Virus record (IMG/VR): IMGVR_UViG_2537562172_000007
Direction: 5' to 3' (one strand)
Source of the DNA: a virus
Taxonomy: Duplodnaviria > Heunggongvirae > Uroviricota > Caudoviricetes
Length of the DNA stretch: 24,154 nucleotides
This document shows positions 6,831-24,154 of this stretch, in pieces. Each line of letters opens with the position of its first letter. Positions within the stretch are counted from its first letter, which is position 1. The notes beneath the pieces were generated by a model, which was given only the letters and a program-made list of their open reading frames with translations, searched no databases and was not told the origin of the DNA. The translations under genes were made by a program, and so were the position numbers.

Positions 6831-7241
6831 ATGGATCAGGTAGTCATTTTTAAACAAATATTTGATAAAGTTCGAAACGATTTAAACTATCAATGGTTTT
6901 ATTCTGAGCTAAAACGTCACAATGTCTCACATTACATTTACTATTTAGCCACAGAGAATGTTCATATTGTATTAAAAAATGATAATACAGTGTTATTAAA
7001 GGGCCTAAAAAACATTGTGTCTGTCAAATTTTCAAAGGATAGGCATCTTATAGAAACGACCTCTAATAAGCTGAAATCCAGAGAGATCACATTTCAGGAA
7101 TACAGAAGAAACCTTGCTAAAGCAGGAGTTTTTCGGTGGGTTACAAATATCCACGAACAAAAAAGATATTACTATACCTTTGATAATTCATTACTATTTA
7201 CTGAAAGCATCCAGAAAACTACACAGATCTTACCACGCTAA
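6831..7241 (+). CDS. ydfO: DUF1398-like prophage protein
   Basis: ORF 6816-7241; ATG at 6831 has a GGAAGG Shine-Dalgarno 6 nt upstream, giving 136 aa; position after ynfO as in Qin. Confidence 0.7.
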
Positions 7242-7392
7242 ACCATAACGTCCGGCTTCTCTCACTCCTGAGCCGGACTGCATTGGTTTAATAAAAACCA
7301 TCAACAATTGTGATTTAGATATTCGGAACCATTCAAATATAACAAAACCCCGTAAAAACGAGGTTTATGGATAAATTTTATTATTGAATACA

Positions 7393-7566
7393 TCAGATTA
7401 AATTAATCTTGACATCATAGCTTTCAAGACCCGTCATTTTTTCCCGTGCGGTAAACTGAATACTGGTAACTTCTTTCCCGGTCTTTTTCTTAAGTTCAAT
7501 AATTTTTTTTGTTATATATTCAGAAATATCTGCTTCTGCTTTTGTTTTTAAGTTTTCAATATTCAT
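7393..7566 (-). CDS. gnsB: GnsA/GnsB family small protein, 57 aa
   Basis: Manually translated MNIENLKTKAEADISEYITKKIIELKKKTGKEVTSIQFTAREKMTGLESYDVKINLI; AAGAGGAAA Shine-Dalgarno upstream; absent from the ORF track because under 60 aa. Confidence 0.75.
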   Translation of the reverse strand: MNIENLKTKAEADISEYITKKIIELKKKTGKEVTSIQFTAREKMTGLESYDVKINLI

Positions 7567-7737
7567 CATTTCCTCTTTTAGTCTGTTATGACTTTCCAGT
7601 TACACAGTAAGTCGATTATATGGTGCAAACGTGTAAAAGATAAGATGAAACATCGCAATAATCAACATACGATAGTCTAAATTTTACACAAACAGACAAA
7701 GAGAATTTTCCTGAATTATCAATGCAATAGCATCAAA

Positions 7738-7893
7738 TCAACTCAAGAGCCTTATTGCTGCTTCCAGAATTTCTTCTGAAGTAACATGTCGATCCGCGGC
7801 TACATAAATGACTTTATGATCTCCGGTCAGAGATGGAAACCCTGCGGCCATTACAGTAAGGTGTGTTTTTTCGCCATTTGGATATTCACGCAT
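7738..7893 (-). CDS. ynfN: small cold-shock-associated prophage protein, 51 aa
   Basis: 63-aa ORF; internal ATG at 7893 (MREYPNGEKTHLTV...) gives the recalled 51-aa YnfN length. Confidence 0.65.
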   Translation of the reverse strand: MREYPNGEKTHLTVMAAGFPSLTGDHKVIYVAADRHVTSEEILEAAIRLLS

Positions 7894-8010
7894 GATGGTG
7901 TTAACTCCAGTCATCGCTGGCACTACCACTGCTGGTTCAGAGTTAAAAAAACTATGATTTTTTTCATGATGTTACCGTAGTATGTGAGTATCCATCGAAT
8001 AGACACCAAG

Positions 8011-8031
8011 CAAAAAAGCTCCCGAAGGAGC
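8011..8031 (-). terminator. rho-independent terminator candidate between cspI and ynfN
   Basis: Minus-strand hairpin GGCTCC-TTCG-GGAGC followed by TTTTTTG. Confidence 0.5.
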
Positions 8032-8238
8032 CTTCATTTTCACTTTTTTAAATCCAACGACAGACGGCTGGCATTTAAGTATTGTGAAATATTATCAAAT
8101 GTAATCATCATTGATTTACAAAAGATACATTTTGCCCCGAAAGGATTCATGTCAGAAACATCAAAAGATGATGTTCTATACTGGGAACCATGACAACACG
8201 GGCATCTAAAGTGAATATGGTTTGTAATATTGTCTACC

Positions 8239-8451
8239 TCAAAGCGCCACTACATGAACAGCGGCAGGACCTTTAGGTCCGTTCTCAATACCAAATTCAA
8301 CTTCCTGATTCTCAGTTAATGTTTTGAAATCGTTGCTCTGAATTGCTGAGAAATGGACAAACACATCTTTGCTGCCATCTTTCGGCGTGATGAAACCAAA
8401 ACCTTTTTCAGGGTTAAACCATTTCACTAAACCAGTCATTTTGTTAGACAT
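8239..8451 (-). CDS. cspI: CspA-family cold shock protein
   Basis: 70 aa with cold-shock domain motifs KGFGFI and VFVHF; sequence consistent with recalled CspI. Confidence 0.9.
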
Positions 8452-8813
8452 AATTATTACCTTTTGAAGAAATTAGCCCTTGGGCAGAATGGTCCGAAAA
8501 AAAATATCAGAGAGAAAAACCAACAAGGAAATCTCAAGAGGTACAAATAATAAAATTATAACAATGACTGCTTCAGATAAATTTGTAACAAACCAGAACA
8601 CCATTAACGCATGATTAACCACCCATAGCAAGGATTACTTTTGTAAAGAAAAACACAGCAATGAAAGAATAGCTTTATTTATTAATAAAACGTGTCATTC
8701 TGATTAAGACCTTTTATCTTACCCTTAAGATTTCAGGAATTTTGGCTCATGGAAGAGTCCTTTTTATTTAAATTTTACATTCCGCGATGTAAATGTTCCG
8801 ATTTAATATTACC

Positions 8814-9837
<1,024 letters not shown>

Positions 9838-9841
<4 letters not shown>

Positions 9842-10149
9842 AGATATTTATGATGAGGACGCTCGTGCTTATTGGCAGGATTTTCAATCTTAAAGGAGTA
9901 CTGATGCTGCAGATAAGACTCAACTTTTTCTGACAATTTTTCTGCTACTTCCAGGAAGACTTGCCGGACGCTCCTTCTGGCTGCTGCCTCATAAAACTCC
10001 AGCGCAGCTCCTTCAACACGGTCCATGGCGACATCCAGGTCAAAAATTTCACCGTCAAAGCGTTCTTTGTCCTGTAAGGCTACAGTTACCGTAACTTTAT
10101 TCTCAAAATTACGGACTCCTTTCACAACCAGTTCATAGTCTTGAGTCAT
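9838..10149 (-). CDS. ydfR: DUF1327-like prophage protein
   Basis: 103-aa ORF between holin and endolysin, as recalled for Qin. Confidence 0.7.
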
Positions 10150-10153
10150 TGGA

Positions 10154-10369
10154 TTACTCTCCTCTCGCAGCCTTACGCCTGTCTTCTTTAATCTTGAAAT
10201 AAAGATTTGTCAGATACGTCAGCAGGCCAAAAACCAGGCTACCCAGCACACCGATTGCAGCCCACTGTGACGGAGTTACTTTATCGAGTAACTGCAATGC
10301 CCAGAAACCAGCATTACCCGCCGATGTGCCATAGGCAACACCTGTTGTTAACTTATCCATTGATTTCAT
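10154..10369 (-). CDS. essQ: class II holin (phage 21 S-like pinholin) with dual-start motif
   Basis: ATG at 10369 gives 71 aa starting MKSMDK (Met1-Lys2-Ser3-Met4 dual start as in S21); two TM segments; the ORF track's longer 96-aa start is unlikely. Confidence 0.85.
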
Positions 10370-10588
10370 ATCCTCACCCCGATGTACACGGATGGTGCAA
10401 TATGTTTGAAAAGATCGGAGTCTACGGGGTAGTTTTGACAGCACACGTTGTTCTCAACGGCGCTAAAAAAACATACACATTAAAAATGTGGGTAATTATT
10501 TTGAAAGAAAGTCATATATAAAATAATAATACGAGAAATGTTTTCATATTTAGTGTACTGTATACGGCCATTTATACAGGAAAAGCCT

Positions 10589-10759
10589 ATGTCAGAACGT
10601 AAAAACTCAAAATCACGCCGTAATTATCTCGTTAAATGTTCCTGCCCAAACTGCACCCAAGAGTCAGAACACAGTTTTTCAAGAGTACAAAAAGGTGCCC
10701 TTTTGATCTGCCCTCATTGCAACAAAGTATTCCAGACAAATCTTAAAGCTGTAGCCTGA
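10589..10759 (+). CDS. small zinc-ribbon protein (CSCPNC...CPHC), 56 aa
   Basis: ORF 10538-10759; internal ATG at 10589 has AGGAAAAG upstream; two CxxC pairs; antisense to the late operon. Confidence 0.45.
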   Translation: MSERKNSKSRRNYLVKCSCPNCTQESEHSFSRVQKGALLICPHCNKVFQTNLKAVA

Positions 10760-16608: not shown

Positions 16609-18457
16609 AGTTAACATTACAAGATATAAGTAATGGACGCACTCCCAATTAGTCTATTTAAATCGCCACGAGTTTAACTGACAACCCATGATCAATTATG
16701 AATTGCAACTATTTCTGTAGTCACTTTTGTGGGGACAGTCCACAAAACTGCCAACATCCGCTTCTTGCTCTTAGCGGACATTAGCATAGGCTATTTACCA
16801 TAACGCCTCATTACGCGCACCGCCCAGACTGACTCAGCGCGTTTCTGGCATATCCCCGGTAAAACAAGTAACAAACCACCCGAAAATGAACACCAGAAAC
16901 GCGACTTAAGAATCTACCCTATGAATGGATATGCACTCAACCGAATCGATCTTGGTTTCAATCTTTTTTATCGGGATCAGGCTTCTTTTTAGGTAACTTC
17001 GGGGGCTTAACTTGCTGATGACTTTGCGTTCGGCGCGTAAGCCAGGGATGGTCAGCTTTAGGTTTAACATAGTATTTTGAGCGTAAATCAATACGGGCAT
17101 TATCCACTCGTTCATGGACACTCTTTTCATCATCCAGTGGTATAGGCTCCGGGCCATCAACATACTTTTCCCAGCCCAGCGCTTTCCCGTCATACAGAAC
17201 GTTAATTTCACCGTCAAAGTTCTCGCATACAGTAACAACCGAATGCCTAAGTCGATATCCCCGGCCCTCACTGCGTACCTGAAACGCACTGCTTTTGTAC
17301 TGGAAAGTGAGATTTTTAGACAGAACGCGCTTCGCCTGTAGGCTGAAGATATAACCCAGTTCCTCTTCAGAATGGTGCACATCAAGATGAGCATTATCAG
17401 TAGTACGAGGCGACGTAGCGAACCGGTTGTTATAGGCTTCAATAAAGGTCGGCAACCATGCATTTGCTGTTTCAATATCACTGATATTCTGAAGCCGCAT
17501 TTCTTTGACCAGCCTGTCCTGTAGTGTCTGATTGGCGCGCTCTACCCGCCCTTTTGCCTGCGGGCTGTTGGCATGGATTGGCTCGATGCCCAGTGTCTTT
17601 ATCGCACGAGTGAACTGGGTCAGCTCACCTTCCCGCTCTGGGTTATTTACCCTGAATATACTGTGTCTATCAGAGTAGAGAGCGAGCGGTACGCCATGAT
17701 CATTAAGGTAACCCCGGAGGGTTTCCATGTAAGCCCGGGTTGTTTCAGCAGGCACAAAACGCAACGCCATCAACGCACTGGTGGCATCATCAATGAAAAC
17801 GATCAGTGTACATCTGGGGCCTCGATTTTCAAACCAGTCATGAGGTGAGCCATCAATCTGGATCAGTTCACCGTAAGATGGTCGTCGCATGCGGCGTTGA
17901 TATATACGGGCAATTTTACGACGGCGTTCACGCCATAACCCCTCTTCTATCATCCACTTTCTGAGAGTTTCAACGGATAAAGATAAACCGTGTATCTCGC
18001 GCAATTTTTCGCACGCAAACGTAGGTCCAAAATCAGCGTAACGGCCTTTGAGGAGTGAAATTACTGTTGCTCTGAATTCAGTAGAAAAGGAATTATTAGG
18101 ACGCTTTCCACGTCGGTGGGAAACCAGACCAGAAGGCCCTTCATTTCTATACCGTTGCACCAGACGTTTAACCTGCCGAATAGAAATGCCAATGCGTGCC
18201 GCAGCTTGTTCCTGAATAATCTGAAGTCGGTGGAGTTCCTTATGACTCATCGTAACAGTCTCTTTGATCATGAAAAATCCCCCAGAGAATTGTCTGGGGA
18301 CATTTTAGAATGGTTCAAAGGGGACATTACAGCTTGGTGTTAACAATAGCCTGCTTCTCCGTGCCTTTCGGCACGTAAGAGGCTAACCTACATGTGTCTA
18401 GCATGAAATTGGCCTCAGATTAATGTTAAGCGTCTTGCAGGACGCGTAATGTTAACT
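16609..18457 (-). mobile_element. insertion sequence carrying one rve-type DDE transposase (family unassigned, IS481/ISNCY/IS21-like); boundaries tentative
   Basis: Tentative ends from a perfect 12-bp inverted repeat: AGTTAACATTAC at 16609-16620 and GTAATGTTAACT at 18446-18457; no target-site duplication recognised. Confidence 0.35.
16958..18271 (-). CDS. DDE transposase, retroviral-integrase (rve) fold with N-terminal HTH
   Basis: 437 aa; HTH region (IGISIRQVKRLVQRY), catalytic-core motifs LIQIDGS, ALYSDRHSIF and SPQAKGRVERAN; GGGGGA Shine-Dalgarno upstream of the ATG. Confidence 0.85.
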   Translation of the reverse strand: MIKETVTMSHKELHRLQIIQEQAAARIGISIRQVKRLVQRYRNEGPSGLVSHRRGKRPNNSFSTEFRATVISLLKGRYADFGPTFACEKLREIHGLSLSVETLRKWMIEEGLWRERRRKIARIYQRRMRRPSYGELIQIDGSPHDWFENRGPRCTLIVFIDDATSALMALRFVPAETTRAYMETLRGYLNDHGVPLALYSDRHSIFRVNNPEREGELTQFTRAIKTLGIEPIHANSPQAKGRVERANQTLQDRLVKEMRLQNISDIETANAWLPTFIEAYNNRFATSPRTTDNAHLDVHHSEEELGYIFSLQAKRVLSKNLTFQYKSSAFQVRSEGRGYRLRHSVVTVCENFDGEINVLYDGKALGWEKYVDGPEPIPLDDEKSVHERVDNARIDLRSKYYVKPKADHPWLTRRTQSHQQVKPPKLPKKKPDPDKKD

Positions 18458-18605
18458 GGGGCTTTTCTCTATCTGCCGTTGGTGTCCATGCCCGAGGCAG
18501 ATAGCCTCAAGCACCCGCAGTCATTCTACTTAACTAAGATTTCCCCGCAAACCGTTTTTGTCCAGCACAGTAAATATCCAACTAAACCAATGGAGTTCGC
18601 TGTAT

Positions 18606-18785
18606 TTACCGCCAGTATTCAATGCACATGACCGCCATGAACACCCCTAAAAAAAGGGCATTTATATATCCAAATATTAATATCAAAACATCAACTTTTT
18701 CCATATACCTTGCTGTGAAGATGATGGGCATACATGATGCGAACAACCAGAACGCAACAAACAAAAACTGCAATGCGTTTTTCAT
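18606..18785 (-). CDS. small two-TM membrane protein, 59 aa
   Basis: ATG at 18785 preceded by AGGAGG with 4-nt spacer; MKNALQFLFVAFWLFASCMPIIFTARYMEKVDVLILIFGYINALFLGVFMAVMCIEYWR has two hydrophobic helices. Confidence 0.4.
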   Translation of the reverse strand: MKNALQFLFVAFWLFASCMPIIFTARYMEKVDVLILIFGYINALFLGVFMAVMCIEYWR

Positions 18786-19564
18786 TATTCCTCCTACAAT
18801 CAATGTGCAATTACATTTAAACACACCTCAATTTGGCCGGACATATAAATATCTAAACCAGAAAAAATCACTTACATAGCGTTACAAACTCTTTAGTCTA
18901 AAGGTTCATCGTAAAACATTCCCCATACTTATCAGTCCGTTCCGCGCCAGGTAGCTCATTGCCTTATCTGGCAACCTGTAATCAGGTTTCCGCTTTTTCA
19001 GTTGGCTGGTCGTTTAACCGACATAGTTAATCCATTAATCTAGTTGCCGGATGTTGGTGGATTTTCGCGTTTTAGTTGTTCATAAAAGTGCACAGCTTTA
19101 ACCAGTTCTTCTGATGTAACTGGGACTGGTGAGGCAGTGAATAAGGCCTGAATTTGATAGTTCGGCCTGTCGTTACAATCCTCTTTTTTCGGTACATATT
19201 TCCAGTCACCAGACCACTACTTCCCCTGAAAGTCCGTAACGCCTTTTTTCACGTAGCGATATCGCCATGCCACTGGTTTTGCTTGCCCCGCCGTTTCATG
19301 CCCTTCCTGATAATTAATCTCGCTCATTCATCGCCCCACTCATCACAATATGCTTCGACCGGAGTTTTTCCCGCTTCATAGTCATCACGCTAGGATTCGA
19401 CATCAGCAGCACTTCCACCGCGTAACTCACCATAGTCCATTAATAGTTCATCCCGCTCTTCAAAACTGATGTTATATTTAGCTGAACAAAAATCAGCCAC
19501 TTTGTTCTTCCTCATCGTCTTTTATTTCGTGGTATGAGTAATTGCAGTAGTTAAAGAAAATTTC

Positions 19565-19675
19565 TTATGCTCCGTCATGAATTTCCTCAGGTGTTGCGTC
19601 ATCGTCCACTTCGAATACATCCTCAAAATCTCCACCAGCTATTCCCGTTTCAATAATAATTTTGAACTTTCGCAT
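19565..19675 (-). CDS. hypothetical acidic 36-aa protein (MRKFKIIIETGIAGGDFEDVFEVDDDATPEEIHDGA)
   Basis: Manual translation; a GCCGCCC-GAAA-GGGCGG hairpin sits directly upstream of the ATG with AGGAGG further 5'; very tentative. Confidence 0.2.
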   Translation of the reverse strand: MRKFKIIIETGIAGGDFEDVFEVDDDATPEEIHDGA

Positions 19676-19937
19676 TTCACTACCGCCCTTTCGGGCGGCC
19701 TCCTGATGTTCTGAGGGTGCAGAAATCCATCCGGTTAAGGATTAAATTTTATTTACAGAACTGAATTTAATTATTCAGATATACGTATCTGTAGCCTTAC
19801 GAATCTACTCACTGGATGCCTCTTTCATAAAAATAATCCAGTGGGTTTTATCGTTTTTTCCCTGTTCGTTGACAGATAACAGGTTTTCTGTCTGTCAGTG
19901 CCAGAATCTGGCTTACCGGTATTTGCGTTTCATTCCA

Positions 19938-20294
19938 TTAAAAAATCAGAACGCCGTGCGGCCTCAACACCCGAAAGGCTTCTTTAAATCTCTGTCGCGA
20001 ATCATCACGCCAGGCATCTTTATTCAGCCGTCCATATTTCTTTCCCATCCAGGCGTTATCACCAACACTCTCAAGATACGGAGGGTCTAATACAACCATC
20101 GAAAAAGATGCGTCTGCAAATGATAATGCACGAAAATCTGCGATAATGTCAGGGCTGATAATCAAGCGTCTCCCATTGCGTAATGTGTATCCTTCTTTTC
20201 TGATATCGCTGAATATCGCCCGTTCGTCAGACTTATCGAACCAGAACATGCGGCTGCCACAGCACATATCAAGAATGGTTGCCGGTGCACTCAC
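19938..20294 (-). pseudogene. N6-adenine/N4-cytosine (Dam-like) DNA methyltransferase, N-terminal fragment
   Basis: 118-aa ORF with SAM-binding motif I (ILDMCCGS) and catalytic motif IV (DPPY); ends before any target-recognition or C-terminal region; no MTase-like continuation in any frame downstream. Confidence 0.6.
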
Positions 20295-20557
20295 TGCGCC
20301 ACGTCCTGAAAATTACCCTGATAGAAAGCCAGTATGCGCTGCATAACTTCGCTCTTCCGGCACTCGCGACAGATTATGTTTAGGCGACTGTCGTAGCGAC
20401 GTATTTCTCCGTCAGGTGATGACCAGATAAGGTCCGGATCAACCACAGCAGGTTTCTTCACCTTTGCCCTCGAGAGTTTTTTGCGGGCGTTTTGCCAGTC
20501 CTTACGCGCCTGTTCAGAGGGGAATAACCCGTATCCGGAGCTTAAGTTGCACGCCAT
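20291..20557 (-). CDS. hypothetical protein overlapping the methyltransferase fragment start (GTGA overlap)
   Basis: 88-aa ORF with no Shine-Dalgarno at its ATG; an internal GTG at 20461 with GAGGG upstream would give 56 aa. Confidence 0.3.
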   Translation of the reverse strand: MACNLSSGYGLFPSEQARKDWQNARKKLSRAKVKKPAVVDPDLIWSSPDGEIRRYDSRLNIICRECRKSEVMQRILAFYQGNFQDVAQ

Positions 20558-22508
20558 TGGGTGGGTTAAGCATAAATGTATTCCTGGTGCTAAATGGCCC
20601 GAAATTCAGGCAGAGATGCGCATCTGGAAAAAACGTCGCGAAGGTGAACGCAAGGAAACCGGAAAATACACGTCTGTTGTTGATCTCGCCCGCGCCAGAG
20701 CCAATCAACAGTACACTGAAAATTCAACAGGAAAAATCAGCCCGGTCATTGCTGCCATTCATCGCGAATACAAGCAGACATGGAAAACACTGGATGACGA
20801 ACTGGCCTACGCTCTCTGGCCTAGTGATGTGGATGCCGGAAACATTGACGGCAGCATCCATCGCTGGGCAAAAAAAGAAGTTATCGACAACGACCGCGAA
20901 GACTGGAAGCGTATCTCGGCATCAATGCGCAAACAGCCTGATGCCCTTCGCTACGACCGCCAAACTATTTTTGGCCTTGTCCGTGAGCGTCCGATCGACA
21001 TTCACAAAGATCCCGTAGCACTGAACAAATATATCTGCGAATACCTGACGACAAAGGGCGTGTTTGAGAATGAAGAAACAGACCTGGGCACTGTTGATGT
21101 TCTCCAGTCATCAGAAACACAAACTGATGCAGTGGAAACTGAGGTATCTGATATCCCAAAAAATGAAACCGCGCCGGAAGCTGAACCATCTGTAGAGCGT
21201 GAGGGGCCGTTCTATTTCCTCTTCGCAGATAAGGACGGAGAAAAATACGGTCGCGCAAACAAACTCTCTGGTCTGGATAAGGCACTGGCTGCTGGCGCCA
21301 CTGAAATCACAAAAGAAGAATATTTTGCCCGAAAAAATGGCACATACACGGGCTTACCGCAAAATGTAGATACCGCTGAAGATTCAGAACAACCAGAGCC
21401 GATAAAAGTTACCGCTGACGAAGTAAACAAAATTATGCAGGCAGCCAATATCAGCCAGCCTGACGCCGATAAGTTGCTTGCTGCATCACGTGGTGAATTT
21501 GTTGAAGGGATTAGTGACCCGAATGATCCGAAATGGGTTAAGGGGCTCCAGACCCGCGATTCTGTGAACCAGAACCAGCATGAATCGGAACGGAACTACC
21601 AAAAAGCGGAACAAAACAGTCCAAATGCGTTACAAAACGAGCCAGAAACGAAACAGCCTGAACCAGTAGCGCAACAGGAAGTGGAAAAAGTCTGCACCGC
21701 CTGCGGTCAGACCGGCGGCGGCAACTGCCCTGATTGTGGCGCGGTGATGGGCGACGCAACATACCAAGAAACATTCGATGAAGAGTATCAGGTTGAAGTT
21801 CAGGAAGATGATCCGGAGGAAATGGAAGGCGCTGAACATCCACACAAGGAGAACACTGGCGGCAATCAGCATCACAATAGCGATAATGAAACTGGCGAGA
21901 CGGCAGATCACCCAATTAAGGTGAACGGTCATCACGAAATCACATCCACCAGCAGGACGTGTGACCATCTAATGATCGACCTTGAAACCATGGGAAAAAA
22001 TCCTGATGCCCCGATCATCTCAATAGGTGCAATATTTTTCGATCCGCAAACCGGAGATATGGGACCGGAATTTAGTAAGACTATCGATCTGGAAACTGCT
22101 GGCGGAGTCATTGATCGGGACACCATTAAATGGTGGCTTAAGCAATCACGCGAAGCGCAATCTGCCATTATGACCGATGAAATCCCGTTAGATGATGCAC
22201 TGTTACAATTGCGAGAATTTATCGACGAAAACTCCGGTGAATTTTTTGTTCAGGTTTGGGGAAATGGAGCCAACTTCGACAACACGATTTTGCGCCGTTC
22301 ATACGAACGGCAGGGGATCCCCTGCCCGTGGCGTTACTACAACGATCGCGATGTACGCACAATCGTTGAGCTGGGGAAAGCCATAGACTTCGATGCCAGA
22401 ACGGCTATTCCATTCGAAGGTGAGCGCCATAATGCACTTGATGACGCCCGTTACCAGGCAAAAATACGTTTCAGTTATCTGGCAAAAACTGATCCCGAGT
22501 CAGGCTGA
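20481..22508 (+). CDS. phage exonuclease with C-terminal DnaQ-like (DEDDh) 3'-5' exonuclease domain
   Basis: Exo motifs MIDLETMG, WGNGANFDNTIL and HNALDDARYQ in the last ~190 aa; acidic low-complexity linker with CTACGQTGGGNCPDCG zinc ribbon; start uncertain (TTG at 20481 or ATG at 20616). Confidence 0.8.
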   Translation: MRAFCQSLRACSEGNNPYPELKLHAIGWVKHKCIPGAKWPEIQAEMRIWKKRREGERKETGKYTSVVDLARARANQQYTENSTGKISPVIAAIHREYKQTWKTLDDELAYALWPSDVDAGNIDGSIHRWAKKEVIDNDREDWKRISASMRKQPDALRYDRQTIFGLVRERPIDIHKDPVALNKYICEYLTTKGVFENEETDLGTVDVLQSSETQTDAVETEVSDIPKNETAPEAEPSVEREGPFYFLFADKDGEKYGRANKLSGLDKALAAGATEITKEEYFARKNGTYTGLPQNVDTAEDSEQPEPIKVTADEVNKIMQAANISQPDADKLLAASRGEFVEGISDPNDPKWVKGLQTRDSVNQNQHESERNYQKAEQNSPNALQNEPETKQPEPVAQQEVEKVCTACGQTGGGNCPDCGAVMGDATYQETFDEEYQVEVQEDDPEEMEGAEHPHKENTGGNQHHNSDNETGETADHPIKVNGHHEITSTSRTCDHLMIDLETMGKNPDAPIISIGAIFFDPQTGDMGPEFSKTIDLETAGGVIDRDTIKWWLKQSREAQSAIMTDEIPLDDALLQLREFIDENSGEFFVQVWGNGANFDNTILRRSYERQGIPCPWRYYNDRDVRTIVELGKAIDFDARTAIPFEGERHNALDDARYQAKIRFSYLAKTDPESG

Positions 22509-22587
22509 TTCTTAATGTTCAACTGTCGCCGGTTGTGACTGGTATTCTGCAACCGGCGCTCGTCTGATGTAAGAGATAAAGAAATCG

Positions 22588-22839
22588 ATGAGCGAAGTAA
22601 TCATGATTGTCTCTCCCGGCAAATGGGTATCCGAAGAGCAGTTAATTGCGCTGAAAGGAATAAAAAAAGGTACGTTAAAAAAGGCCCGGGAAAAATCGTT
22701 TATGGAAGGAAGGGAATATAAGCATGTCGCTCATGACGGTATGCCATGGGATAACAGTCCATGCTTTTACAACCTGGAAGAAATTGATCGCTGGATTGAG
22801 CGCCAGGCATCAGCGAGACCAAGACGTCATCTTACTTGA
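22588..22839 (+). CDS. excisionase-like small DNA-binding protein
   Basis: 83-aa basic protein immediately upstream of the integrase, same strand; no strong sequence match recalled. Confidence 0.55.
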   Translation: MSEVIMIVSPGKWVSEEQLIALKGIKKGTLKKAREKSFMEGREYKHVAHDGMPWDNSPCFYNLEEIDRWIERQASARPRRHLT

Positions 22840-22858
22840 CTAAAAGCCACACTAACTA

Positions 22859-24154
22859 ATGAGAGAAGTTGAAATGAAATATCCGACAGGCGTGGAAAAC
22901 CATGGAGGGAAATTACGTATCTGGTTTGTTTATAAAGACGTAAGAGTCAGGGAAAATCTGGGGGTTCCTGACACAGCAAAAAACAGGCGCGTTGCAGGTG
23001 AACTACGCTCCTCTGTTTGTTACGCAATAAAAACTGGTGTTTTCGACTATGCAAAACAGTTTCCCTCCTCACGCAATCTGGAAAAATTTGGTGAGGCCCG
23101 ACAAGATTTAACCATAAAAGAACTGGCTGAAAAATTTCTGGCACTGAAAGAAACTGAAGTCGCCAAAACATCACTCAACACATACCGTGCCGTCATCAAA
23201 AATATCCTGAGCATAATCGGTGAAAAAAATCTTGCCTCATCGATTAATAAAGAAAAATTACTGGAGGTTCGTAAAGAGTTACTGACTGGATACCAGATCC
23301 CCAAAAGTAACTATATTGTTACACAACCAGGGAGATCGGCTGTAACTGTAAATAATTACATGACAAATCTTAACGCCGTGTTCCAGTTTGGTGTTGATAA
23401 CGGTTACCTGGCAGATAATCCGTTTAAGGGGATCTCGCCATTAAAGGAATCAAGAACCATTCCGGATCCTCTTTCGCGGGAAGAATTTATCCGTCTTATC
23501 GATGCGTGCAGAAATCAGCAAGCAAAAAATTTATGGTGTGTTTCTGTTTATACTGGAGTTCGCCCTGGTGAGCTGTGTGCACTTGGATGGGAGGACATAG
23601 ATCTGAAAAATGGAACAATGATGATCAGGAGAAATTTAGCAAAAGACCGTTTCACGGTACCAAAAACACAGGCGGGAACCAATCGGGTCATTCATCTTAT
23701 TAAGCCAGCAATCGACGCTCTCCGGAGTCAGATGACATTAACGAGACTGAGCAAAGAGCATATCATTGATGTTCACCTCAGAGAGTATGGCAGAACAGAA
23801 AAACAAAAATGCACCTTTGTTTTTCAACCTGAAGTGTCAGCGAGAGTAAAAAATTATGGTGACCATTTTACCGTTGACTCAATAAGGCAGATGTGGGACG
23901 CAGCGATAAAACGTGCCGGACTCCGCCATCGAAAATCATATCAGTCGAGACATACTTATGCCTGCTGGTCGCTGACAGCTGGTGCTAACCCGGCATTTAT
24001 AGCAAACCAGATGGGCCATGCAGATGCGCAAATGGTATTTCAGGTATACGGAAAATGGATGTCTGAAAACAATAATGCACAGGTAGCTTTGTTAAATACA
24101 CAGTTAAGCGAGTTTGCCCCAACCATGCCCCATAACGAAGCAATGAAAAATTAA
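22859..24154 (+). CDS. tyrosine integrase (phage integrase family)
   Basis: C-terminal catalytic residues in context (RPGELCAL, HTYACW, Y in YGKWM); N-terminal arm-binding-like region; ATG at 22874 has the better Shine-Dalgarno (GAGAAG); stop at the window end. Confidence 0.9.
   Translation: MREVEMKYPTGVENHGGKLRIWFVYKDVRVRENLGVPDTAKNRRVAGELRSSVCYAIKTGVFDYAKQFPSSRNLEKFGEARQDLTIKELAEKFLALKETEVAKTSLNTYRAVIKNILSIIGEKNLASSINKEKLLEVRKELLTGYQIPKSNYIVTQPGRSAVTVNNYMTNLNAVFQFGVDNGYLADNPFKGISPLKESRTIPDPLSREEFIRLIDACRNQQAKNLWCVSVYTGVRPGELCALGWEDIDLKNGTMMIRRNLAKDRFTVPKTQAGTNRVIHLIKPAIDALRSQMTLTRLSKEHIIDVHLREYGRTEKQKCTFVFQPEVSARVKNYGDHFTVDSIRQMWDAAIKRAGLRHRKSYQSRHTYACWSLTAGANPAFIANQMGHADAQMVFQVYGKWMSENNNAQVALLNTQLSEFAPTMPHNEAMKN

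Follow-up and report, generated by a model that had tools for sequence, protein, structure and literature searches.

The question raised by this locus is whether an uninterrupted reading frame of 675 amino acids, extending from a TTG codon at position 20481 to position 22508 on the plus strand of the window (the whole 24,154-nucleotide stretch of viral DNA that was analyzed; frame taken from a mechanical ORF list), is a working gene for a large exonuclease. An initial annotation of the DNA had described it as open throughout and apparently intact. The open frame is there as described, but we conclude that it is very probably a non-functional relic of the exonuclease gene that a lambdoid prophage of the Qin type carried in its early-left (pL) operon; on its sequence, the window is itself such a prophage, cryptic, from Escherichia coli. 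The features on which the argument draws are collected in Table 1.

Table 1. Features of the exonuclease remnant and its surroundings (positions in the window)
Feature	Position	Strand	Basis
DUF977 (LygF-like) 3' remnant, pR operon, first ~58 codons gone	20291..20542	-	PGAP pseudogene; PhiR42_1
YdfE/Qin-type exonuclease gene remnant (incomplete gene)	20481..22508	+	ORF list; phrog_2082; PGAP
First 17 codons of the frame, MRAFCQSLRACSEGNNP, TTG included: antisense read-through of the DUF977/lygF remnant	20481..20531	+	Collinearity with PhiR42_1 L004
Deletion junction, GTATCCGGAG	20531..20540		9/10 microhomology
Stretch shared with K-12 ydfE, full-length codons 164-255	20532..20809	+	100% identity over 279 nt
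All-helical domain, ORF residues 92-197, shared with RecE-type proteins	20754..21071	+	AlphaFold2, pLDDT ~97
Beta-hairpin/alpha mini-domain, residues 242-287 (EREGPFYFLF...)	21204..21341	+	pLDDT 80-96, two independent predictions
DNA-level module in common with Rac-type RecE, 78% nucleotide identity	21462..21909	+	Nucleotide and BLASTP comparison
Zinc knuckle, CTACGQTGGGNCPDC, CxxC-x7-CxxC	21693..21737	+	Sequence; RecE alignment
DEDDh 3'-5' exonuclease domain (Rv2179c-like/T4 DexA-like)	21966..22466	+	PF16473, phrog_255, 8KEL
A5 homopolymer (A4 in every other genome), +1 frameshift	22460..22464	+	Genome comparison
Out-of-frame tail, IRFSYLAKTDPESG and stop, in place of YVSVIWQKLIPSQADS and stop	22464..22508	+	Comparison with relatives
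Excisionase (DUF1233), next in line in the former pL operon	22588..22839	+	PGAP; domain search
Tyrosine integrase, intact here unlike K-12 intQ	22859..24154 (PGAP start 22874)	+	PGAP; domain search

The catalytic part of the frame is what the initial annotation took it to be. Profile search places the C-terminus within the DnaQ-like DEDDh exonucleases: residues 496 to 662 match Pfam PF16473 (Rv2179c-like 3'-5' exoribonuclease; E = 8.3e-65, 218.2 bits against a cutoff of 27, over profile positions 2 to 172 of 177), and matches were also obtained to phrog_255, which includes T4 DexA (E = 1e-73), and, by phmmer, to the DexA structure 8KEL (E = 1.5e-6). All three motifs read from the sequence are found (Exo I, MIDLETMG, 21972-21995; Exo II, WGNGANFD, 22257-22280; Exo III, HNALDD, 22428-22445), with the five DEDDh catalytic residues present (the D-x-E of MIDLETMG, the D of GANFD, and the H and D of HNALDD), invariant when aligned with T4 DexA, and upstream of the frameshift described below. 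The RecE nuclease domain, PF06630, is matched by neither the window frame nor a full-length relative in Pfam and PF16473 stands in its place, in agreement with the earlier statement that this is not a nuclease of the lambda Exo or RecE type.

Complete motifs and 675 open codons are the case for an intact, functional gene starting at TTG 20481; the other end of the frame makes that reading extremely unlikely. The phrog_2082 profile aligns to residues 10 to 666 at profile positions 156 to 812 of 823 (E = 0, 1376 bits), with scaffold and DEDDh tail collinear with the family. Its typical length is 823 amino acids, with an N-terminal domain (PF27430) that is missing in short forms, and intact 823-residue orthologues of PHROG 2082 are encoded, as whole genes, by inducible phages such as PhiR42_1 (XSB42569.1) and HannyBb (XNS40216.1). 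Protein identity is 99.4-99.7% over full-length residues 164-808 (99.7% between the PhiR42_1 protein and the frame's product), and homology begins only at codon 18 of the frame, which is full-length codon 164. The conserved 163-residue head (PF27430) and the ATG of the full-length protein are absent from the frame; the TTG and the 16 codons after it are antisense DUF977 sequence brought into place by a deletion. The ribosome-binding candidate 4 nt upstream of the TTG is a weak GAGAG, a promoter scan gave three promoter-like hits (3.8 +/- 2.3 expected by chance), none of them near the frame, and Rfam places no RNA family within or adjoining it. Because the first 163 codons, the start and the promoter have been lost, the gene is not intact; the case is an ordinary one, and the remnant is probably not expressed. 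In RefSeq genomes the gene, otherwise identical, is a pseudogene according to PGAP, which applies 'missing N-terminus' to both genes that flank the deletion junction (DUF977 and the exonuclease); the same allele is already flagged in RefSeq.

Comparison with the inducible phage PhiR42_1 accounts for the missing head. In all, 4,620 bp are absent from the window: positions 18143-20540 correspond to positions 1-2398 of PhiR42_1 locus L004 (the lygF side, 99.9% identity), and positions 20531-24154 to L004 positions 7009-10631 (99.97%). The interval that is missing is annotated in L004 with cI, cro (dicC), cII, O, ydfB/C/D, and the 5' ends of lygF and of the exonuclease gene, and the two sequences that meet at the junction are, compared base by base, near-repeats, GTAGCCGGAG in lygF and GTATCCGGAG at exonuclease codons 163-166. 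A single deletion between these two 10-nt near-repeats fused the 3' part of DUF977 on the minus strand (in intact PhiR42_1 a protein of 139 residues; PF06163, E = 5.5e-28) tail-to-tail with what is left of the exonuclease gene, its 3' four-fifths, on the plus strand. Lost with it were the two early promoters, the pair of repressor and cro, dicB/dicF, cII, O and the first 163 exonuclease codons, and the remnant was left with no start codon of its own, convincing ribosome-binding site or promoter; the long frame is the surviving one plus 17 codons of antisense sequence. In terms of the pL operon, the xis/int side is kept, the side from ydfD to cI/cro and pL is deleted, and in the place of that upstream half lie convergent-to-divergent remnants of the pR operon.

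Neither an inversion nor an assembly artefact was accepted as the origin of the tail-to-tail layout, since 91 independent complete genomes carry an identical junction and a single phage genome is collinear with both flanks. That count refers to an 81-mer spanning the junction, matched at 100% identity over its full length in complete E. coli genomes; strain O141:H4 P13-6 is one carrier of the junction allele. The looser requirement that at least 80% of positions 19800-22900 be present gives 134 genomes with the arrangement. In strain FORC 064 the same remnant is further split by IS600/IS30, as expected of DNA that is not under constraint.

The counterpart in the Qin prophage of K-12 is ydfE (b1577): the gene is the same, as is its position in the prophage (ydfD - exo - xis - int, beside rspB), and it has been broken in a complementary way. 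It keeps codons 1-255, with the rest lost to IS2E, whereas the window keeps codons 164-823 and lacks the head and the upstream operon; the stretch common to the two ends where IS2E cuts ydfE. The statement in the initial annotation that an insertion sequence interrupts the K-12 locus was therefore right. The conserved 3' end of the gene is widespread, being found in 3,827 of the 5,426 complete E. coli genomes, in up to five copies per genome.

A second lesion lies near the 3' end, where an extra A shifts the frame after ...ARYQAK, seven codons past the last catalytic Asp, so that the final 16 residues are changed; in the authentic frame the stop would lie at 22513-22515. The PF16473 match accordingly covers profile positions 2-172 here and 2-177 in an intact relative, with the C-terminal helix after Exo III incomplete in the window copy. 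Among the 5,426 complete genomes, no full-length exact match was found to an 81-mer carrying the A5 run, and 3,831 records match it with one gap (that is, with A4). We lean slightly toward a homopolymer error in the source assembly, in which case the remnant ends in YVSVIWQKLIPSQADS with its stop at 22515, like the other copies: the run is unique to the window, and only two indels (the other at ~7944) separate the window from its nearest genome, both in A-runs and both breaking a reading frame. Slippage at A-runs also occurs in vivo, however. As the DNA stands, the extra A is an internal frameshift, the kind of defect that the initial annotation had itself regarded as evidence against its proposal; together with the deletion of 163 codons, the start and the upstream operon, it goes against the description as apparently intact and open throughout. 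Perfect catalytic motifs and a long open frame do not equal an intact gene, and the locus is a textbook case of prophage decay.

The part of the protein that precedes the nuclease is related to RecE. The initial annotation could not assign an N-terminal domain; by BLASTP, residues 262-627 of the full-length protein align with residues 278-592 of Rac RecE (E = 2e-62), the last ~160 residues being near-identical, and the NCBIfam RecE model NF007259 matches residues 100-477 of the window frame (E = 5e-84). A fold for the region is another matter. Foldseek searches with an AlphaFold2 model of ORF residues 18-373 (56 diverse sequences; pLDDT 77, with three confident sub-domains) gave nothing significant in the PDB (best E ~1, probability at most 0.2) or in BFVD (best E 0.05, probability 0.1), and a profile search of PDB sequences gave low-complexity noise only, so that the proposed HHpred-type check of residues 1-250 leads to no known fold in these searches. 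A model of the full-length 823 residues from 34 sequences (94% mean identity) was unusable (pLDDT 36.5); Pfam, NCBIfam and PADLOC added nothing for the non-nuclease part, and the precomputed Pfam labels in the family are PF27430 and PF27432. The helical domain is the most widely conserved non-nuclease module, the most distant representatives matching query residues 60-220. The module whose DNA resembles that of Rac-type RecE contains LAASRGEFVEGISDPNDPKWVKG together with both the zinc knuckle and the acidic linker, and stops ~20 codons short of Exo I. Here the initial annotation was right about the E/Q/D-rich linker and the four cysteines beside it and wrong about their spacing, which is x7 and not x8. 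The knuckle is conserved in Rac RecE, yet just 7 of the 54 long representatives of the family have it.

Many phage records name homologues exodeoxyribonuclease VIII, and with the BLASTP and RecE-model matches just given this label would make the gene a RecE-type recombination nuclease. The match to NF007259 takes in only positions 271-600 of the 877 in the model, a stretch outside the catalytic part, and reaches 282.9 bits where the equivalog cutoff is 1269; PF16473 replaces PF06630; and no recT adjoins the DEDDh-type gene in the window, PhiR42_1, HannyBb, vB_EcoS-689R5 or PPompW, where xis follows directly, although recT does follow the RecE-type gene of phage vB_EcoS-673R7. A 3'-to-5' polarity, moreover, would yield none of the 3' tails needed for annealing (SynExo knowledge; PMC11611040). 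We regard a recombination role of this type as implausible in the extreme. The N-terminal part, knuckle and linker are no novel appendages; their homology to the pre-nuclease part of RecE makes the protein RecE-related in its scaffold and not in its nuclease, and a role as SynExo recombination nuclease is improbable for the intact family, which lacks a RecT partner.

The ancestral protein, as the intact phage genes still encode it, consists of a YdfE-type head (residues 1-163), a RecE-like scaffold, and a C-terminal DEDDh exonuclease of the T4 DexA/Rv2179c-like clade. The scaffold runs from the helical domain through the small beta/alpha domain to a disordered linker rich in E/Q/D, in which a zinc knuckle is optional, and it would serve to position the exonuclease domain. 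By analogy with T4 DexA, the intact enzyme would presumably be a Mg2+-dependent 3'-to-5' exonuclease acting on DNA 3' ends. Literature searches (ydfE, PF16473, Rv2179c-like in phage, and exodeoxyribonuclease VIII with DEDD) found no functional or experimental study of the intact family. A RecE N-terminal scaffold joined to a DexA-like 3'-5' exonuclease, with no RecT, is a combination worth recording.

The remnant retains 644 authentic codons in open frame with its catalytic residues intact, so read-through transcription, with translation from an internal or chance start, could still yield a protein; and because copies are ~99.9% identical to functional phage genes, the deletion is too young for decay to prove a loss of function. 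We weighed whether a shortened exonuclease, expressed in this way, has been domesticated to protect the host against phages with modified DNA. The precedent is EcD ('HREX'), a stand-alone E. coli DexA homologue that gives resistance to T4 when plasmid-borne (PMC12153337), and the allele has become fixed in no fewer than 91 genomes. Those genomes are most simply explained by common descent of a cryptic prophage, the promoter scan found no expression signals, insertion sequences disrupt the same remnant in other strains, and PADLOC returns only a generic DEDDh match (E = 1e-5). By the criteria of that study the domain also appears to differ from EcD: there, W152 and D169 of DexA are proposed to recognize 5hmC, and variants that act in defense do not have D90, a tetramer residue that is Ala in EcD (PMC12153337). 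In a three-sequence alignment at 30% identity, and hence tentatively, W152 is replaced here by Tyr and D169 is kept as Asp; D90 is also kept as Asp (PLDDA), with modest alignment confidence. EcD begins with MIDTET (PMC12153337), and IDTET occurs in none of the family representatives compared. Domestication is accordingly very unlikely. We consider it very unlikely, too, that the remnant (or at least its A4 allele, in at least 91 genomes) is still translated from read-through transcripts and that its product, a scaffold with a DexA-like 3'-5' exonuclease, is retained by the host as an HREX-like anti-phage nuclease, with the RecE scaffold as a general delivery module; if it were so, phages would load one RecE scaffold with interchangeable nucleases of opposite polarity. 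Our preferred reading is still that of a prophage relic.

Three further known systems bear comparison with the gene. With Rac RecE it shares the helical domain and the segment LAASRGEF...zinc-knuckle...acidic-linker, and both genes lie in the pL operon ahead of xis/int. It differs in the catalytic domain (DEDDh, 3'-to-5', here; PD-(D/E)XK, 5'-to-3', PF06630, in Rac RecE) and in the type of head, although a RecE-type head with a DEDDh tail does exist (for example, in phage vB_EcoS-689R5). Among 53 long representatives that share the non-nuclease part, PF06630 was counted in 31, DUF3799 (PDDEXK) in 18 and an Rv2179c-like domain in 11, and all four combinations of head and tail are seen among scaffold-sharing proteins. 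The RecE part in question (residues ~278-592) has no known function (PMC11611040), and a scaffold that occurs with either nuclease and either head offers a clean natural experiment on the role of the RecE N-terminal region. T4 DexA (PDB 8KEL/8KEN) belongs to the same DEDDh fold family, and its catalytic residues and D169 have aligned equivalents; identity is ~30%, several DexA insertions are missing here, and the exonuclease domain is fused to a scaffold of ~630 residues, whereas DexA and EcD are stand-alone proteins of ~200-227 residues. Rv2179c of Mycobacterium tuberculosis founded PF16473, of which the remnant is a strong member (E = 8e-65), and a PDB sequence search gave no direct match to a solved Rv2179c chain. 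Rv2179c itself is cellular, small and stand-alone, and has been described as an RNase, whereas the gene considered here is a phage gene, a context that suggests a DNA substrate.

Across its entire 24,154 nt, the window shares 99.98% identity with the Qin cryptic prophage of E. coli O141:H4 P13-6, which is flanked by ydfJ and rspB and whose genes include relBE, hokD, cspB/F/I and the lysis genes. The frame under study opens with a TTG at 20481 and continues unbroken on the plus strand to its stop at 22508 (675 amino acids [aa], numbered from the TTG). The initial annotation took it for an apparently intact exonuclease gene; relative to the inducible phage PhiR42_1, its first 163 codons are deleted. 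PGAP calls the P13-6 gene a pseudogene ('3'-5' exoribonuclease domain-containing protein; incomplete; missing N-terminus') in RefSeq. ORF aa 10-666 match positions 156-812 of PHROG 2082 ('exonuclease', profile length 823), and homologues from a large protein collection usually have 823 aa, with an extra N-terminal PF27430 (precomputed Pfam domain) that is absent from the short forms. The complete 823-aa gene is present in PhiR42_1 (from ECOR13) and in the inducible phage HannyBb (99.4-99.7% identical to the window where the two overlap), with the gene order cI/cro ... ydfB, ydfC, ydfD, exonuclease, xis, int.

The loss is directly visible. The PhiR42_1 locus (L004) is collinear with the window in two blocks (L004 1-2398 with 18143-20540, and L004 7009-10631 with 20531-24154) that have 10 nt in common; these read GTATCCGGAG both in the window and at the exonuclease end of the deletion, and GTAGCCGGAG at the DUF977 end. 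The junction thus originated in a single 4,620-bp deletion at a 9/10 microhomology. The junction is real and inherited, because an 81-mer spanning it is found, full length and identical, in 91 complete E. coli genomes. The deleted segment must have included both early promoters. Authentic exonuclease sequence begins at ORF Y18 (YPELKL; full-length residue 164), and the first 17 codons, TTG included, are the DUF977 remnant in antisense, read up to the nearest upstream stop. The adjoining opposite-strand gene in P13-6 is itself a DUF977 pseudogene ('missing N-terminus'; PGAP, RefSeq). In the window this remnant appears as an 88-aa mechanical ORF (20291-20557, minus strand), whose ATG and first ~5 codons (MACNL) are the antisense of the junction's exonuclease side; this start is fortuitous and chimeric, arises from the same deletion and mirrors the exonuclease ORF's false TTG.

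Features of the exonuclease remnant, the deleted segment and the adjacent prophage genes
Feature	Location	Strand	Remarks
Exo I motif	21972-21995	+	MIDLETMG
Exo II motif	22257-22280	+	WGNGANFD
Exo III motif	22428-22445	+	HNALDD
Four-Cys element (zinc knuckle)	21693-21737	+	CTACGQTGGGNCPDC; CxxC-x7-CxxC
Helical hairpin	ORF aa 18-62		AlphaFold2 prediction
All-helical domain	ORF aa 92-197		AlphaFold2 prediction, pLDDT ~97
Small beta-hairpin/alpha domain	ORF aa 242-287		AlphaFold2 prediction
DUF977/lygF gene			deleted, first ~58 codons
O and cII			deleted
cro (dicC) and cI (dicA)			deleted
ydfA-D/dicB region			deleted
Exonuclease gene			deleted, first 163 codons
Excisionase	22588-22839		intact
Integrase	22859-24154	+	intact; Arm-DNA-binding and phage-integrase domains

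The claim that the frame is open throughout also fails, though possibly through an artefact. The window has A5 at 22460-22464, as opposed to A4 in P13-6, PhiR42_1 and all others, and because of this extra A the protein ends ...ARYQAK-IRFSYLAKTDPESG rather than, as elsewhere, ...ARYQAK-YVSVIWQKLIPSQADS. Among 5,426 complete genomes searched, an 81-mer across the site had no full-length exact match, and 3,831 records matched it with exactly one gap. Comparison of the window with P13-6 shows just one further indel, at ~7944 in ynfN (minus strand, ~7738-7968; A7 in the window, A8 in the nearest genome), and both indels in the 24 kb break ORFs. Their location in A-runs, together with the lack of an exact A5 match, makes a sequencing error no less likely than a private mutation, and the pair suggests homopolymer errors in the source assembly. 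The shift touches only the second half of the exonuclease domain's last helix, and all five DEDDh catalytic residues lie upstream of it.

Those intact residues are the one point we found in favor of an expressed, domesticated remnant acting in the manner of HREX (defense by the E. coli DexA homologue EcD), a reading we regard as highly improbable. Promoter-like sites upstream of the ORF did not exceed chance (3 found, none nearby, against 3.8 +/- 2.3 expected), and a weak GAGAG is the only Shine-Dalgarno-like sequence before the TTG. In E. coli FORC 064 (L009 4028-8081) the same 5'-truncated remnant is further split by an IS600 fragment and an IS30 copy, as expected for unconstrained DNA. The window copy is probably neither expressed nor functional. 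In several other junction-carrying genomes the fragment is annotated just as 'hypothetical protein', which hints at secondary disruptions of the same or a similar kind.

The descriptive part of the initial annotation is correct, the anatomy and motifs being observed directly. All three Exo motifs are present in the C-terminus, where PF16473 (Rv2179c-like 3'-5' exoribonuclease) matches aa 496-662 (E 8.3e-65) and the generic RNase_T/DEDDh model matches more weakly in Pfam. The proposed zinc ribbon exists as a four-Cys element, with a spacer of seven residues and not eight, and the E/Q/G/N/T/D-rich sequence around it bears out the Asp/Glu/Gln-rich linker.

The part left unassigned is homologous to RecE, whose N-terminal part is without known function according to a review (PMC11611040). 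Positions 271-600 of the NCBIfam RecE model correspond to ORF aa 100-477; in BLASTP, residues 262-627 of the full-length protein align with 278-592 of Rac-type RecE (E 2e-62), with near-complete identity in LAASRGEFV(E/D)GISDPNDPKWVKG, the zinc knuckle and the acidic linker, and similarity ends just before the RecE nuclease core. Window 21462-21909 is 78% identical to RecE DNA. When 1.84 billion cluster representatives were searched exhaustively, just 193 clusters proved to contain this RecE-like scaffold, and module shuffling was seen directly: among 53 long scaffold clusters the tail is the RecE nuclease PF06630 in 31 and a DEDDh domain in 11 (DUF3799 [PDDEXK] matches in 18), and either tail occurs with YdfE-type as well as RecE-type heads. 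The zinc knuckle is an optional insert, since only 7 of 54 long representatives have it. The RecE-type gene is followed by recT, unlike the DEDDh-type genes, which in four phages have no recT after them and xis/int directly next. One scaffold-sharing representative (among P0121-P0269) carries a RecT domain (PF03837, E 1e-42) within its own polypeptide, which is a fused exonuclease and annealase or else the product of a wrongly called gene boundary. AlphaFold2, run on ORF aa 18-373 with a diverse 56-sequence alignment (pLDDT 77), predicted sub-domains connected by disordered linkers; Foldseek found no significant neighbor in PDB or BFVD, a sequence profile matched no PDB chain, and the scaffold domains appear to be orphan folds.

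The intact family would comprise 3'->5' exonucleases that depend on metal and attack DNA ends soon after induction or infection, while the RecE-type scaffold tethers them to its own binding target. It is probably not a SynExo recombinase (an exonuclease-annealase pair of the RecE/RecT type), given its wrong polarity and the lack of an annealase gene next to it. Host DNA scavenging, counter-defense and exclusion of other phages are candidate roles.

Judged by sequence, the catalytic domain belongs to the DexA/Rv2179c-like branch of DEDDh exonucleases, in keeping with the DnaQ-like assignment made initially: phrog_255, which includes T4 DexA, matches the ORF (E 1e-73), sequence searching recovered just two solved structures, T4 DexA 8KEL and 8KEN (E 1.5e-6), and the DEDDh residues are invariant in a three-way alignment including T4 DexA. 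DexA is a 3'->5' DNA exonuclease, and the stand-alone EcD is reported to protect against T4 (PMC12153337). In that alignment (30% identity, hence tentative) DexA W152 corresponds to Tyr and D169 to Asp, and the tetramer residue D90 is kept; by the criteria of PMC12153337 the family does not obviously look EcD-like.

Integrase and excisionase are intact in the window, whereas K-12 intQ is a pseudogene; the prophage is still incapable of being a functional phage because its immunity and replication regions are deleted. At 16958-18271 and 18900-19680 (both minus strand) PGAP annotates, from the identical genome, a partial ISNCY-family transposase, a frameshifted hypothetical gene and a DUF7167 gene with an internal stop, where K-12 Qin has ydfX-dicC-dicA; the window lineage wholly lacks dicA, dicC, dicF and dicB. 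Given this differing content, what each of the two Qin lineages has lost from a PhiR42_1-like ancestor differs and is largely complementary. The Rfam sok antitoxin RNA (RF01794) matched full-length at 18345-18516 (minus strand; 104 bits, gathering score 59), which indicates that the pR-side remnant holds a toxin-antitoxin module of the hok/sok type, distinct from the hokD locus further left; HannyBb has a 'MokW-like host killing protein' annotated at the equivalent place.

To a specialist these findings will be unsurprising: the window allele is already in RefSeq as an annotated pseudogene, the family is already named in PHROG, Pfam and NCBI, and K-12 ydfE is catalogued as a pseudogene. As the initial annotation indicated, the K-12 equivalent is interrupted by an IS: there IS2E cuts this same gene, named ydfE (b1577), after codon 255 and has eliminated xis and the 5' part of intQ as well. 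The K-12 fragment (codons 1-255) and the window fragment (codons 164-823) overlap by 279 nt with 100% identity and represent two complementary decay routes of one ancestral gene.
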